NCBI GenBank assembly: GCA_039585915.1
Contig: JBDGUZ010000016.1
Coordinates: 1-44,065 of the forward strand
DNA from: Gemmatimonadota bacterium
GTDB lineage: Bacteria > Gemmatimonadota > Gemmatimonadetes > Palauibacterales > Palauibacteraceae
Reading direction: 5' to 3'
DNA: 44,065 nt
A program made the translations under genes and the position numbers. The notes beneath the pieces are model-generated. The model was given only the letters and a program-made list of their open reading frames with translations. It was not told the DNA's origin and did no database searches. Below, in pieces: positions 26,287 to 31,071 of this stretch (within the stretch, counting starts at the first letter, position 1; the number at the start of each line of letters is the position of its first letter).

Positions 26287-27012
26287 GTGGCCGGGTCCGA
26301 ATCAGGACAGGCCGCCCCAGACAGGAATCGAACCATGCAGGGCGAGGCAAGACCAACGGTAAATCCCGCCGGCCGGGGACTCGACGGAACTGCGGTCATA
26401 CTGCTGACAGTGACGATCGTGCTCGGACTGGCCGGGGCGCGTCTGCTGATCTCCGGTGGACGCAGTGCGATCACAGGCGGAATACTGCTCCTGATCGGGG
26501 CACTTGCCGCAGAGGCAGTCGCTTTCGGCGGCCGAGCCTGGGGCCCGGAAGTAGAGGGCTCCCTGGACCTGAGCTCGCGACTCGGACTCGGGGTACTCGG
26601 GGGCATGCTGGCCGGCTTGTTTCACGCCATCCTCACCCTGTCGGCTGGCTGGACAGGCCTCGCCGCGCTTCTCGGATCAGGGATCGACGTGCAGCTCTCG
26701 GCGGCCGACTGGGGTGTCCGCCTGCTGCATGGTGTCGCGTGGGGGTTTCTGCTTGGACTCGCCTGGCGACTGATCCCGGGCGCGGACTTCGTGGGCAAGG
26801 GCCTGGTGTTCAGTCTCGTGGTCAGCGCCTACGTGCTGTTGATACGGTTTCCATTCTTCGTGGGGGTGGGCTTCCTCGGGATCGAGTTCGGCGTGTTCAC
26901 TTCGGTCCTTGTGCTGGTCGGCAACGCCTTGGCCGCCGTGCTGGCCGCGGGCGTGATCGCTTGGGGAGCGCGGAGCCCGGATCGACCCGTCAGTCAACCT
27001 CTCGTTCGCTGA
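26287..27012 (+). CDS. Hypothetical multi-pass membrane protein
   Basis: About 6-7 hydrophobic Gly/Leu-rich segments. Start uncertain (26287 GTG or 26335 ATG). Confidence 0.65.
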   Translation: MAGSESGQAAPDRNRTMQGEARPTVNPAGRGLDGTAVILLTVTIVLGLAGARLLISGGRSAITGGILLLIGALAAEAVAFGGRAWGPEVEGSLDLSSRLGLGVLGGMLAGLFHAILTLSAGWTGLAALLGSGIDVQLSAADWGVRLLHGVAWGFLLGLAWRLIPGADFVGKGLVFSLVVSAYVLLIRFPFFVGVGFLGIEFGVFTSVLVLVGNALAAVLAAGVIAWGARSPDRPVSQPLVR

Positions 27013-27038
27013 GCGACCCTGGCAGTCCGCGGAGCGGG

Positions 27039-27239
27039 ATGGCGGACCGGAATTACCGTTACTGGCTCCGATTTCAGATCGGTCTGACCACAGCGGGGAT
27101 TCTGGCCTGGCTGGCTGGAGTCGCGATCGAGAACTCGTTTCTGTCTGGTTTCGGCACGGGAGTCATGGCATCGGCTCTTGCGATCCGGTTCCTGCGCGGG
27201 CGAAGACCCGGAGAGCCGTCCGGCGGCGACGGCGCCTGA
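27039..27239 (+). CDS. Small two-TM hypothetical membrane protein (66 aa)
   Basis: GGAG upstream of ATG 27039; MADRNYRYWLRFQIGLTTAGILAWLAGVAIENSFLSGFGTGVMASALAIRFLRGRR..., two hydrophobic helices with basic flanks. Confidence 0.6.
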   Translation: MADRNYRYWLRFQIGLTTAGILAWLAGVAIENSFLSGFGTGVMASALAIRFLRGRRPGEPSGGDGA

Positions 27240-27272: not shown

Positions 27273-27491
27273 CTAGACGGGCGCGTTGCAGCCGTCGAGG
27301 CAGCCCCTGTACAGGTGGATGCAGGGCTCGTCGTTACCGATCGGCGCCGCACCGGCCTGGCACAACACGCTGATCGTCTCGCAGTAAATCCTGCACAGTC
27401 TGCCGGCGGCCTCGGCTGCCGGCGCCTCGGCTGGTGCTGGAGGCAGCGACGCCAGGAGCAGCGCGACCCCGGTCAATAGACGGATTCTCAT
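27273..27491 (-). CDS. Secreted six-cysteine peptide B (72 aa)
   Basis: AGGAG RBS; Sec-type signal; C-x3-C-x6-C-x12-C-x6-C-x3-C; paralog of the adjacent peptide gene. Confidence 0.8.
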   Translation of the reverse strand: MRIRLLTGVALLLASLPPAPAEAPAAEAAGRLCRIYCETISVLCQAGAAPIGNDEPCIHLYRGCLDGCNAPV

Positions 27492-27510
27492 CGGATCTCC
27501 TCTCTCGTTG

Positions 27511-27729
27511 TCACAGGTATTTGTTCACGTTGCAACCGGCGAGGCAGCCGGCGATGTACAGATTGCACCGCCAGGAATCGATTTCGTCGCAATTCTCGGC
27601 AGCCTTTTCACCGCAATAGTCCGAACAGCTCACCTTCGCCTTCTCGGCCAACGCCTCCGGTGGAGCAGCGCCGGTTACGAAACCGGCGAGAGTCAATGCA
27701 GCCAGCGCCGCGGTCAGTCGTCTTCGCAT
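27511..27729 (-). CDS. Secreted six-cysteine peptide A (72 aa)
   Basis: GGGAG RBS; signal peptide ending in ALA; C-x3-C-x7-C-x7-C-x6-C-x3-C. Confidence 0.8.
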   Translation of the reverse strand: MRRRLTAALAALTLAGFVTGAAPPEALAEKAKVSCSDYCGEKAAENCDEIDSWRCNLYIAGCLAGCNVNKYL

Positions 27730-27787
27730 GAGATTCTCCCGTTGGGGAAATGGAATCGAGCCGCCCGTTCCGTCGCGTCAGGCGGCA

Positions 27788-28345
27788 TTAGGAACCCGCG
27801 TGTGTGCCGCGGGTGAGGGGCGCCGTCAGCAGAGTCCAGGTATCGTCCGGACTGAGTACTCCCTCACGTCGATCCAGCATCCGGCCGTCGACTCCGACCG
27901 TGAAGGCGGTCGGAACGACATGGATCCGCAACGCGGACAGGAATTCGGCCGTGTCCAGCGGCTGGAGGGTGATCATCCCCGGGAGCTCCCGGGCGGTCCA
28001 GGCGGCTGCCTCCGGGTCATTTCCGACAGACACGGCGATCAACCTGTAATCGGGGGAACGACTGAGCGCCTCCCTCCAGGCCGGCGTCGATCTCTCGCAC
28101 GCCGGGCAGGTCGTGAGGAAGGCGAGGACCGTCGCCGGGGCCAGGCTGACGAGGGTCAGGGTGTCACCGCTTGAGAGGTCCCGCAGCTGAATTTCGGCCG
28201 GCACCTGCTCGCCGGGATCGACGATTCGTCTCTCACGAAGGGCAGGCATGACTCGATCGCGAGCGACGAGTCCGACCGCGACCGCGAGGGCGACCACGGT
28301 CAATCCGTTCAGCATCCAGTCCATCGATCTTCGTCCCGAACCCAT
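27788..28345 (-). CDS. Membrane-anchored thioredoxin-fold thiol-disulfide oxidoreductase (TlpA/ResA-like, 185 aa)
   Basis: GGAGGA RBS 5 nt before ATG 28345; N-terminal TM; PGEQVP...L.DL, TTCPAC (CxxC), IAVSV, VVPT (cis-Pro loop), DGR....EG. Confidence 0.8.
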   Translation of the reverse strand: MGSGRRSMDWMLNGLTVVALAVAVGLVARDRVMPALRERRIVDPGEQVPAEIQLRDLSSGDTLTLVSLAPATVLAFLTTCPACERSTPAWREALSRSPDYRLIAVSVGNDPEAAAWTARELPGMITLQPLDTAEFLSALRIHVVPTAFTVGVDGRMLDRREGVLSPDDTWTLLTAPLTRGTHAGS

Positions 28346-28475
28346 TCTGCTCCTCCTCGGTCCCCGGATTGCCGGCGCGCTTCGACGGTCGGTCCCACCG
28401 GTCAACGTGTGTTCAACTGGGTCTGGCTTTGCGGCGGGATGATCGGTCCGTGACCGGCTCGTCGAGTGTGATGCC

Positions 28476-29759
28476 GTGAACAGCGTCGAATCGAACAACA
28501 GCGAAGGCCGGGCGGTTGACGAAGCGCTGCAGCGGCACTTCGGTCACGACAGTTTTCGTCCGGGCCAGGCAGCGGTCGTTGCAGCGATTCTGGCGGGTCG
28601 GGATGTTCTCGGGGTGCGCACCACGGGCTCTGGAAAGTCGCTCTGCTTCCAGCTCCCGGCCGTCATGTCATCGGGTCCGACCGTCGTGGTATCACCGCTC
28701 ATCGCACTGATGCGGGACCAGGTCGAGGGTCTCCGTCGCAGAGGCATTGATGCCGCCGCTCTCACGTCGGCGACCGATCGCTCGGAACGGGCCGATCTGC
28801 TCGAGCGCCTCGGGACGAGACCTCCGCGACTGCTGTACTTGTCGCCGGAGGGACTCGCGACTCACCAGATGCGTTCTCTGTCGGCGGAACTGCATCCAGC
28901 CCGCGTCGTGGTCGATGAGGCGCACTGCATCAGCGATTGGGGGCACGATTTCAGGCCCGAATACCGGAAGATCCTCCCGTGGCTCGTGTCAGCGGGCCGG
29001 CCTCCAGTGGCGGCGTTCACGGCTACCGCGACTCCCGGGACTCGGCGCGACATCGAGACCTGCCTCGGACTGCGTGACCCGGTCCGGTTCGTATCCTCCG
29101 TCAACCGTCCCAATCTCCGTTGGGAGGTGCAGGTGTCCGGCGAGCCCGGCCGCGCACTGTGGACCATCGAAACGGCCGTGGTTCAATCACTTCACGAGGG
29201 AGACGGAGCATCGGCGCTGATCTACGTCCTGTCCCGCTCGGGCACGGTTCGACTGGCCCACGCCCTCCGGTGCGGGGGAGCGCCGGCGGTGGCATACCAC
29301 GCGGGCATGGATCCGTCCATCAGGTCGCGTATTCAGGATGACTTCGCCCGGGGGAAGCATCGGGTGATGTGCGCGACAAGCGCGTTCGGCATGGGCGTAG
29401 ATCATCCCACCATTCGTCTCGTGTGCCACCTGGGGATGCCGGCGGCCCTCGAGGCGTACGTCCAGGAGGCCGGTCGAGCGGGACGGGACGGATATCCCGC
29501 GCGGTGCCTCCTGCTGCCGCTTCCGAGCGACGTTCGTCTTCACCGGTCACGGATCCGGTCGCAGCGGGGCATCGGTCGGACAACCGCGCCCGAACAGAGT
29601 GCATCCAGCAAGCGGATCGCGGTGCTCGCGCACCGGCGATTCCGCGCCATGCGCTCGTACGCGCATGGGCGAGAGTGCCGCCGCGCCGCGATCGCCCGAT
29701 ATTTTGGTGAACCTGAACCCGTGTGTACGGGTTGCGACCGTTGCGGATCCGGCGGTTGA
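28476..29759 (+). CDS. RecQ-family ATP-dependent DNA helicase, short form (helicase core plus Zn-binding module only)
   Basis: FG.DSFRPGQ, TGSGKSLCFQLP, VSPLIALMRDQV, VDEAHCISDWGHDFRPEY, TATAT, YHAG, ATSAFGMG.D, QEAGRAGRDG, CRR...YFGE...C.GCD.C. Confidence 0.92.
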   Translation: MNSVESNNSEGRAVDEALQRHFGHDSFRPGQAAVVAAILAGRDVLGVRTTGSGKSLCFQLPAVMSSGPTVVVSPLIALMRDQVEGLRRRGIDAAALTSATDRSERADLLERLGTRPPRLLYLSPEGLATHQMRSLSAELHPARVVVDEAHCISDWGHDFRPEYRKILPWLVSAGRPPVAAFTATATPGTRRDIETCLGLRDPVRFVSSVNRPNLRWEVQVSGEPGRALWTIETAVVQSLHEGDGASALIYVLSRSGTVRLAHALRCGGAPAVAYHAGMDPSIRSRIQDDFARGKHRVMCATSAFGMGVDHPTIRLVCHLGMPAALEAYVQEAGRAGRDGYPARCLLLPLPSDVRLHRSRIRSQRGIGRTTAPEQSASSKRIAVLAHRRFRAMRSYAHGRECRRAAIARYFGEPEPVCTGCDRCGSGG

Positions 29760-29865
29760 GAATCAGGCTGTGGTTGCTCCGGGCAACCCCGCAGCGGTTC
29801 CCGGTGGTCGGAATCTACGACGCCGCCTTGTGATGCGGCCCGAACTCGTCGAACAGGATGCACTC

Positions 29866-31071
29866 ATGCGAATTTTGTTTCTTTCTCGCCCCGCGCTTGC
29901 GTCGGGGGGATCGCTCGCCCTCGCGTTCTGCGCCGGTCTCCAGCTCACAGCGGGATCAGCCCGTGCCCAGGAGCCGACTCGTCTCGGATCACCAGAGGCG
30001 GTCGCGGCGGAGCCGCGCGGCTCCATATCGGGGATTCGGGTGCAGCAGGGAGGGGCCGTTCTCGTCGCCGACGGAGTGGAAGCTCGACTGGTCCGGCTGT
30101 CACCAGACCTGGCGGAGGCGACGGTCGTGGGTCGGGAGGGGCAGGGCCCGACCGAGTATCGGCAGCCCGACGGGCTGTTCGCGCTGCCCGGCGACTCGAC
30201 CCTGATGACGGACCTGGGCAACGGCCGGCTCGCGGTGCTGGCGCCGGACGGATCGATCGTCCGGACCGAACCGATCGCGCGGGATGGTGATAATGGCGGA
30301 ATGATGCTCGTAATGCCCCAAGCGACCGATGCGGAAGGGGGGATCTGGTTCGCGTCGAGAGGTGGTCCGCGCGTGAGTCTCGACGATTCCGTGCAGGTCC
30401 GCAGACTGGACCCGGCGACCGGGGAGTTGGAGACAGTGGCGCACCTGGCGCCGCCTCCGATGACGCGTTCGACGAGTGGAGGCGCAGCGAACATGGAGGA
30501 GCGGATCATGCCGATCCCGTTCGGCCCCGAAGACGCGTGGACGGTCGGACCGGGTGGCCTCGCAATCGTCCGGGCGGAGCCGTACCGCGTCGAACGCGTT
30601 CGGCCGGACGGATCCGTGATCATCGGGCCGGAAGTCGAGTGGGAACCCATTCCGGTCAAGAGCGCCGACCAGGAGGAATGGCTGGATGGCCAGACGGGGG
30701 GCCTGCAGGTGATGGTCTCCATGGAGAACGGTGCAAGGAATACGAGTTTCAGTCGTGGTGGCAGCCGTCCTCCGGGCATGGACGTGGACTCCTTCGATTG
30801 GCCCGAGACGAAACCCGCGATCTCCGCGCGCGGCGCCCGCGTAGACTCCGATGGACGGATCTGGGTGCGCCGGAACGTGAAGGCCGGTGAGCCGCCGCTG
30901 TTCGACGTATTCGGTGTCGACGGAGGCAGGTCGGGTCAGGTCGAGTTGCCACCGGACCGGACTCTCGTGGGGTTCTCGAGGGACTACGTCTACCTCGCTC
31001 GAACGGACGAGTTGGACTTCCGGTGGCTCGAGCGGTACGCGGTACCGACGATCGACGCCGGGGGGCGCTGA
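29866..31071 (+). CDS. Secreted six-bladed beta-propeller (NHL/TolB-like) protein
   Basis: Signal peptide ending ARA-Q; [43 protein letters not shown]. Confidence 0.65.

Follow-up and report, generated by a model that had tools for sequence, protein, structure and literature searches.

A co-inherited gene unit encoding a thioredoxin-like protein and two paralogous six-cysteine mini-proteins in one order of Gemmatimonadota

The locus

The window analysed here is a stretch of 44,065 nucleotides (nt) of Gemmatimonadota DNA (GenBank assembly GCA_039585915.1, contig JBDGUZ010000016.1), which is contig C16 of a metagenome-assembled genome of 2.5 Mb and 66% completeness. On its minus strand lies a compact cassette of three genes, which encode a thioredoxin-like enzyme and, downstream of it, two small cysteine-rich precursors that we call miniA and miniB. 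An earlier note, made from the letters of the window, had drawn attention to this cassette as a possible pathway for disulfide-rich extracellular peptides. The genes and one upstream element, taken from the list of open reading frames and from a reading of the minus strand, are as follows, with lengths in amino acids (aa) and base pairs (bp).

27788..28345, minus strand: thioredoxin-like enzyme gene, 185 aa from its ATG, with GAGGAGGAG upstream
27511..27729, minus strand: miniA, 72 aa, with GGGAG upstream
27273..27491, minus strand: miniB, 72 aa, with GAGAGGAG upstream
28402..28417, minus strand: promoter-like direct repeat GTTGA-N6-GTTGA (period 11 bp), some 55 nt upstream of the enzyme ATG

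These features bear out the earlier note's outline of a three-gene minus-strand unit: the three open reading frames are present, the adjoining genes (26287..27012, 27023..27239 and 28476..29759) all lie on the plus strand, the gaps of 58 nt between the enzyme gene and miniA and 19 nt between miniA and miniB are as it gave them, and the sequences listed above correspond to the ribosome-binding sites it had placed before each gene. Its reading of the products also stood. The enzyme has a CPAC motif and an N-terminal hydrophobic segment, both 72-aa precursors carry six cysteines and Sec-type leaders, the latter read from the sequences and their alignments, and both mature peptides are slightly acidic on reading. 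A longer form of the enzyme could start from a TTG at 28498; we prefer the ATG because of the alignment of orthologues and the position of the promoter-like repeat. The GC content of the cassette (0.63-0.68) is the same as that of the surrounding DNA.

Linkage, conservation and selection

The earlier note proposed that homologues of the mini-proteins be sought and their link to a thioredoxin gene examined. Relatives fall into two families, f1 and f2, within one Gemmatimonadota order. A miniA query (E<1e-10) found a match in 40 of 60 relatives' genomes, 19 of 36 in f1 and 21 of 24 in f2, and together with the window's own locus the 40 fetched loci make a set of 41. The order enzyme-miniA-miniB, on one strand, is preserved in 39 of these, and the remaining pair run into contig ends, which remove miniB in L046 and the enzyme gene in L049. 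Wherever the contig is intact, miniB directly follows miniA. Across the 41 loci the enzyme-miniA gap ranges from -4 to 67 nt and the miniA-miniB gap from -4 to 55 nt, apart from a single miniA-miniB gap of 179 nt; two values of -110 (L019 and L034) are artefacts that arose when an internal enzyme start was picked.

Within f1 the neighbourhood is wholly syntenic, with genes for an enoyl-CoA hydratase and a 241-aa membrane protein on one side of the cassette and those for RecQ and a beta-propeller on the other, and the f1 loci therefore do not count as independent evidence of linkage. Every f1 flanking gene is missing around the f2 cassettes, which lie among genes for a DUF5916/CBM9 protein, a propeller, an ATP-binding cassette (ABC) ATPase, Fur and others, and the cassette itself is unchanged. 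Two of the three cassette-less f1 genomes examined (G023 and G025) have the hydratase, membrane-protein and RecQ genes contiguous, with about 260-300 nt between the membrane-protein gene and recQ at the site of the 1.1-kb cassette; in the third (G016), RecQ was not found within the fetched stretch. These empty sites indicate that the three genes are gained or lost together.

The ratio of nonsynonymous to synonymous substitution rates (dN/dS), computed pairwise with sequence pairs of unequal length left out, was 0.085-0.244 for miniA (7 pairs), 0.02-0.236 for miniB (7 pairs) and 0.187-0.332 for the enzyme (6 pairs, of which one near-identical pair with 14 differences gave 0.686). The three genes are real and under purifying selection. 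Linkage in nearly all loci, across two families with unrelated flanks, supports the earlier note's suggestion that they form a dedicated, co-inherited unit with the thioredoxin gene.

One locus from the genus of the window, L003 (G004:C538, 338-553, minus strand), holds a miniA orthologue that is 89% identical and whose second codon is TGA, alongside an intact miniB and an intact enzyme gene. The TGA could reflect a sequencing error, a downstream start or the early decay of one paralogue.

Sequence and predicted fold of the mini-proteins

Judged by their profiles, miniA and miniB are paralogues. Profile-profile alignment gave a probability of 98.4% (E 8.1e-15, 69 columns), with part of the signal supplied by the leaders; pairwise BLASTP detected only the GCLxGCN motif. 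Both leaders have a short basic N-terminus, a stretch rich in leucine and alanine, and an Ala-x-Ala-like end, as seen in the alignments, and the miniA leader covers approximately residues 1-28, which leaves a mature part of roughly 44 aa. We read the leaders as Sec-type rather than twin-arginine translocation (Tat)-type because the twin arginine is not conserved. KR, RIR and RP variants take its place, and Tat export, with the export of a pre-folded protein carrying a cofactor such as an Fe-S cluster, was set aside.

The mature parts are defined by their cysteines. The spacing is C-x3-C-x7-C-x7-C-x6-C-x3-C in miniA and C-x3-C-x6-C-x10-12-C-x6-C-x3-C in miniB. The six cysteines together with L63 and G65 are invariant in 102 miniA sequences, and the six cysteines with G63 and G67 in 89 miniB sequences. 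The last two cysteines lie in a G-C-x-x-G-C motif in which the glycine before each is invariant or nearly so. Structure prediction, which the earlier note had suggested, returned a helix-loop-helix for each mini-protein. The AlphaFold2 (AF2) models consist of two helices joined by a 6-residue loop, at residues 35-46 and 53-71 in miniA and 25-48 and 55-68 in miniB, with predicted local distance difference test (pLDDT) values over the mature part of 81-91 and 93-96, respectively. Each mini-protein is thus predicted to be a helix-loop-helix hairpin. When the cysteines are paired from the outside inwards, their residue numbers sum to 101 in all three pairs of miniB (33+68, 37+64, 44+57) and to 101, 101 and 102 in miniA (35+66, 39+62, 47+55). 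Sums so nearly constant are the register of an antiparallel ladder. A prediction of a miniA-miniB complex, run without controls, scored 0.31 against a mark of 0.32.

The earlier note had allowed that the peptides might belong to a family already characterised. No Pfam or NCBIfam model scored above threshold for the mini-proteins, no PDB entry matched them, and Foldseek against the PDB returned no match at E<1 for either model. In the ESM Atlas the best scores were 0.85 and 0.87, under the level of 0.9 taken as a lead, and the clusters concerned were unnamed or uninformative. DUF3551 appeared below threshold in 3 of 102 full-length miniA and 11 of 89 full-length miniB sequences (best E 0.007) and in none of 77 sequences once the leaders were removed, and it was rejected as a relative. 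The literature searched, which did not extend to supplementary files, held no paper on the family. As far as the literature and family libraries show, the mini-proteins belong to no described family.

The thioredoxin-like enzyme

An N-terminal hydrophobic segment preceded by basic residues can be read from the alignment in all 26 aligned orthologues of the enzyme. C80, C83, W90, V144 and P145 are invariant among them, as are the juxtamembrane residues R31 and P34. The CxxC motif is mostly CPAC, a proline follows five residues after the second cysteine, and the cis-proline loop is V-P (VVPT in the window protein). Family models recognise the enzyme only faintly. Pfam Redoxin gave E 3.8e-4 and 20.7 bits against a cutoff of 26.6 bits, with both the window protein and its orthologue at the f2 locus L018 below that cutoff, and the NCBIfam models for dsbE, ResA and StoA gave 14-20 bits against cutoffs of 123-210. 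By profile comparison the closest solved relative is StoA (E 9.5e-8), and further matches, to 1e-3, are the thioredoxin domain of Neisseria MsrA/B, a Thermus thiol-disulfide isomerase, DsbE/CcmG, ResA and DsbF. On this evidence the enzyme is a divergent extracytoplasmic thioredoxin of the TlpA/ResA/StoA kind, predicted to face the periplasm.

Candidate redox partners were sought in five genomes of the order, that of the window included. VKOR genes occur in all five, as do genes of the CcdA/DsbD type (DsbD_TM), the latter away from the cassette; DsbB was not found in any of the five. Weak MauE-like matches lie elsewhere in four of them, with none in the 66%-complete genome of the window. None of the VKOR, CcdA/DsbD or MauE-like genes stands next to the cassette in these genomes. 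With both VKOR and CcdA/DsbD present, the periplasm should be able to oxidise as well as to reduce.

Distribution

A scan with a miniA profile across 301 genomes of the phylum, taking the best 20 candidates per genome, found six positive genomes, that of the window among them, all in f1 or f2; in families f3-f12 the same scan gave 0 of 276. Even in one well-sampled f1 genus, a single marginal match (E 8.1e-4) was found among 16 genomes. In a collection of 5.8 billion proteins the three families are alike in size and small, with 195 clusters for miniA and, from the best 8,000 candidates in each case, at least 89 for miniB and at least 84 for orthologues of the enzyme at E<=1e-5. None of these miniA or miniB clusters carries a Pfam family. 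In the source databases the mini-proteins are named "hypothetical protein", and the enzyme "thioredoxin family" or "TlpA family protein disulfide reductase". The named taxa are all Gemmatimonadota, with the exception of an incomplete miniA whose 1.5-kb contig bears the label Gammaproteobacteria.

When a profile built from the mature parts of miniA and miniB was searched without length limits against 1.84 billion representatives, it matched 33 sequences at E<=1e-3. Their length is 66-91 aa in almost every case; of three longer exceptions, two are cysteine-repeat proteins matched over short stretches only. P0235, a 193-aa metagenomic singleton on a 657-nt contig, has two six-cysteine hairpin domains in tandem, both ending in GCLAGC. 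It has no obvious leader and a differing composition, rich in lysine, asparagine and serine, and may have arisen by fusion in a related protein of a different lineage.

Upstream repeat and neighbouring genes

The direct repeat upstream of the enzyme gene is widespread: the pattern WTGA-N7-WTGA occurs within 300 nt upstream of that gene in 36 of 38 loci, compared with 2 of 1,727 control windows. At 9-12 nt beyond the repeat stands an nAnnnT box, which in f2 reads TAGACT; neither repeat lies at the canonical 17-nt distance from this -10-like box. Three of four complete genomes each have a single copy of the complete f2 pattern, -10-like box included, and the reversed control pattern gave one match (G055). 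The same repeat is also present upstream of lepB, in 20 of 29 loci, and upstream of recA in the window's own genome, and for that reason we reject an operator specific to this operon. This lineage may instead have an unusual type of promoter, of which the repeat is a part.

Two plus-strand genes border the cassette in the window. The hydrophobic 72-aa open reading frame at 27023..27239 is convergent with miniB across a gap of 33 nt, shows 56-62% identity across loci of the same genus and has no family match. The gene at 28476..29759 is transcribed divergently from the cassette and encodes a short RecQ-family helicase (427 aa), which ends after its DEAD, Helicase_C and RecQ zinc-binding domains and scores under the cutoff of the full-length RecQ equivalog.

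In f2 a six-bladed propeller of about 380 aa (DUF5128-like; L018:3864-5012, minus strand) directly follows miniB, and the window has a homologous propeller of 490 aa at 29599..31071 on the plus strand, two genes away (hhalign 97.4%). The propeller family (about 380-490 aa) gives weak DUF5128 and NHL signals, bears the motif G-R-x-G-x-G-P-x-E-Y-R-x-P and is strongly expanded, each of the 10 genomes searched giving 4-45 matches. As a conserved partner it was rejected: in f2 genomes the orthologue of the window propeller sits at another site (E 1e-133 to 1e-140), and the best f1 matches of the f2 propeller likewise lie elsewhere, which marks it as a chance neighbour drawn from a large paralogous family. 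Downstream of miniB in f2, on the same strand and in 14-16 of 16 loci, come genes for the propeller, an ABC ATPase, a 249-aa protein without family, Fur and a phosphoribosyltransferase; the best NCBIfam models for the ATPase are of the GldA and DrrA (ABC-2) types. At L018 an alkylmercury-lyase-like gene lies about 4 kb upstream of the cassette. In f1 the cassette is linked neither to that gene nor to the f2 genes for the propeller, the ABC ATPase, the 249-aa protein, Fur and the phosphoribosyltransferase. The neighbours scanned in the window and the nine open reading frames of L018 include no radical SAM enzyme, glycosyltransferase or C39 exporter, all of which the earlier note had reported missing, and the conserved neighbour clusters of the 16 f2 loci are the same genes as those scanned in L018.

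Possible functions of the cassette

We have described a bacterial mini-protein family, hitherto undescribed, with six invariant cysteines and a predicted hairpin fold, which always occurs as a paralogous pair and always with a dedicated thioredoxin, predicted to be periplasmic; little work has been done on such mini-proteins or on their phylum. The account of its function that we favour, and to which we would give roughly an even chance, is that the cassette makes a pair of periplasmic hairpins, each stapled by three disulfides, and that its own oxidoreductase builds or proof-reads the resulting ladder. It starts from four observations: the three genes are co-inherited, the cysteine register is invariant, a hairpin is predicted for each peptide, and the enzyme has an intact active site. 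Both precursors would be exported by Sec and their leaders cleaved, and each mature peptide of about 43 aa would fold as an antiparallel helix-loop-helix. We infer that three inter-helix disulfides (C1-C6, C2-C5 and C3-C4) then staple the hairpin, the G-C-x-x-G-C motif on helix 2 allowing the very close packing of helices that such a ladder would need. The enzyme, predicted to be membrane-anchored with its CxxC domain in the periplasm, would introduce or isomerise these three close disulfides, which general VKOR-based oxidation would tend to mispair, and the two stapled paralogues may act together, in the periplasm or at the membrane surface. MauD, a CxxC protein of thioredoxin fold, is required for the six disulfides in methylamine dehydrogenase's small subunit (bioRxiv 10.64898/2026.03.05.709764), and it is the closest functional precedent. 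If the proposal is correct, the cassette would serve as a small model system for oxidative folding dedicated to particular substrates in a VKOR-using diderm, and as a source of a very small, probably hyper-stable peptide scaffold.

Several considerations weigh against this proposal. The disulfides are deduced from the cysteine register rather than from sulfur-sulfur distances, the Redoxin match of the enzyme lies under its curated cutoff, and the cassette is known from its genes alone. StoA, ResA, CcmG/DsbE and the MsrA/B thioredoxin domain are mostly reductants, fed by CcdA or DsbD, and relatives of this kind may fit an enzyme that keeps cysteines reduced at least as well as one that makes disulfides. 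As for the earlier note's pathway for disulfide-rich extracellular peptides, the dedicated, co-inherited unit and the new family stand, and the word extracellular is unsupported. The phylum is diderm, a Sec leader by itself leads to the periplasm in such cells, and none of the genes conserved with the cassette is an export system.

The point about reductants leads directly to the main alternative, which we regard as unlikely, namely that all twelve cysteines stay reduced and bind soft metals (Cu(I), Zn, Cd, Hg) between the helices. In such a scheme miniA and miniB might form a four-helix bundle like a miniature copper storage protein, and a CcdA-fed, TlpA-like enzyme would keep the cysteines reduced in an oxidising periplasm, much as TlpA keeps ScoI and CoxB reduced. 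The nearest characterised relatives of the enzyme are indeed thioredoxins of reducing pathways, and membrane proteins of the CcdA/DsbD type were encoded in every genome checked. The cysteines, which are the sole invariant polar residues, occupy positions i, i+4 and i+11 along a single face of the helix; in the Csp copper storage proteins the core is lined with CxxxC motifs, and Sec leaders, rather than Tat, suit metal loading in the periplasm. However, no metal-homeostasis gene is conserved beside the cassette in f1 or f2, no Pfam metal-binding family is matched, and there is no conserved histidine or methionine. A 43-aa hairpin with an interface of glycine, alanine and cysteine would probably have little hydrophobic core without covalent staples, and the invariant glycine before cysteine suggests closer helix contact than in cysteine-lined bundles. 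If metal binding should prove correct, the cassette would represent a new type of periplasmic thiolate metal buffer. A secreted two-peptide antimicrobial or toxin, whether bacteriocin-like or resembling a pair of alpha-hairpinins, with its own folding enzyme, is less likely than either stapled or metal-binding hairpins, and we consider it improbable. Adjacent paralogous small genes resemble two-peptide bacteriocin loci, sublancin is accompanied by its own oxidoreductases BdbA and BdbB, and in f2 an ABC-type ATPase lies two genes downstream of the cassette. Those ABC genes have no counterpart in f1, the leaders are Sec-type and not double-glycine, no C39 peptidase, exporter or immunity-like gene is conserved with the cassette, and in a diderm Sec would deliver the peptides only to the periplasm. 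The slight acidity of the mature peptides also speaks against it, and the vertical conservation across the order, mini-protein dN/dS of 0.02-0.24 and GC content like that of the surroundings seem unlike mobile, fast-evolving bacteriocin loci. In favour of an antimicrobial function, a twin C-x3-C helix-loop-helix defines the plant alpha-hairpinin antimicrobial peptides (PMC11591084) and a dedicated thiol-disulfide oxidoreductase, PedC, serves a bacteriocin, pediocin (PMC4919988).

Two further possibilities seem slight. The hairpins could serve as a thiol-redox relay or buffer, cycling between dithiol and disulfide to pass electrons to envelope proteins or to sense redox state, a role we rate as quite improbable. 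It would account for three redox elements of the CxxC or CxxxC type being encoded together in genomes that hold oxidising (VKOR) and reducing (CcdA/DsbD) modules elsewhere, and the invariant juxtamembrane R31 and P34 of the enzyme suggest a membrane partner. Three rungs per hairpin, on the other hand, would appear to exceed what a relay needs, no conserved neighbour is fit to be acceptor or donor, and we know of no precedent for 43-aa hairpins as redox carriers. The least probable of the functions considered here, by a little, is that a disulfide-stapled miniA-miniB hetero-oligomer acts as a periplasmic chaperone for hydrophobic envelope proteins, an independently evolved counterpart of the small Tims of the mitochondrial intermembrane space, with the enzyme as a dedicated, Mia40-like oxidase. 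The paralogous pair, the twin C-x3-C motifs and the hydrophobic helix faces are weak pointers to it, as are the very hydrophobic miniB loop and amphipathic miniA tail in f2 and the tandem hairpins of P0235.

Comparison with known systems

Like the sublancin and pediocin loci, the cassette encodes small exported cysteine-containing peptides together with a thioredoxin-like protein, which in those loci is a folding factor (for PedC, PMC4919988). Those loci are Gram-positive; their peptides have double-glycine leaders or are glycosylated, and they carry ABC exporters and genes for immunity, features of which none is conserved with the cassette. The Sec-like leaders with their Ala-x-Ala end and the lack of a C39 domain likewise separate it from the class II two-peptide bacteriocins, and SCIFF peptides, sactipeptides and ranthipeptides differ in having an adjacent radical SAM maturase, of which there is none among the neighbours in the window and at L018.

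The predicted fold of the mini-proteins, a helix-loop-helix with twin C-x3-C motifs, is that of the alpha-hairpinins, plant antimicrobial or trypsin-inhibitor peptides for which PMC11591084 gives the motif C-x3-C-x(4-20)-C-x3-C and a six-cysteine form C-x3-C-x3-C-x4-20-C-x3-C-x3-C. In the mini-proteins the two C-x3-C motifs are 22-27 residues apart and the third pair lies 6-7 residues away, so that they fall outside this motif. They differ as well in being bacterial, slightly acidic, equipped with Sec leaders and encoded as a paralogous pair with a dedicated enzyme, and no sequence homology to alpha-hairpinins was detected. The mitochondrial parallel is of a similar kind. Small Tims have twin C-x3-C motifs, occur as paralogous pairs (Tim9/Tim10) and are oxidised by a dedicated oxidoreductase, and CHCH proteins have twin Cx9C motifs and depend on Mia40. 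Both groups are, as the mini-proteins would be, small helix-loop-helix proteins with twin cysteine motifs, in a compartment derived from the periplasm. The mini-proteins are half their size, with three rungs rather than two and without long tentacle ends. Neither zf-Tim10_DDP nor CHCH was matched in Pfam at E<=0.1-1 when 102, 89 and 77 members were scanned, and the CHCH protein Mdm35, at rank 10 in Foldseek with E>4, is not a meaningful match.

The enzyme resembles TlpA, ResA, StoA and CcmG (DsbE) in its putative N-terminal anchor, its predicted periplasmic thioredoxin fold, its CxxC motif, the proline that follows and the cis-proline loop. It is very divergent from them, with all scores under curated cutoffs, and is linked to mini-proteins rather than to genes for cytochrome c maturation, cytochrome oxidase or sporulation. 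Unlike ResA, it has no glutamate three residues after the CxxC motif, a residue that is important in ResA. With the MauD system (bioRxiv 10.64898/2026.03.05.709764) the cassette has in common a CxxC protein of thioredoxin fold, membrane-associated there and predicted to be so here, that is encoded with a small, very cysteine-rich periplasmic protein and, in that system, needed for it. It departs from that system in lacking an adjacent MauE gene, in an enzyme without an NCBIfam MauD match at E<=1, and in its candidate substrates, two 43-aa hairpins instead of a subunit bearing a quinone cofactor. An exported cysteine-rich substrate with a thioredoxin of its own is an arrangement of a known kind; as far as the literature and family libraries show, what is new is the substrate family, its paired six-cysteine hairpin architecture and its restriction to one order of Gemmatimonadota.

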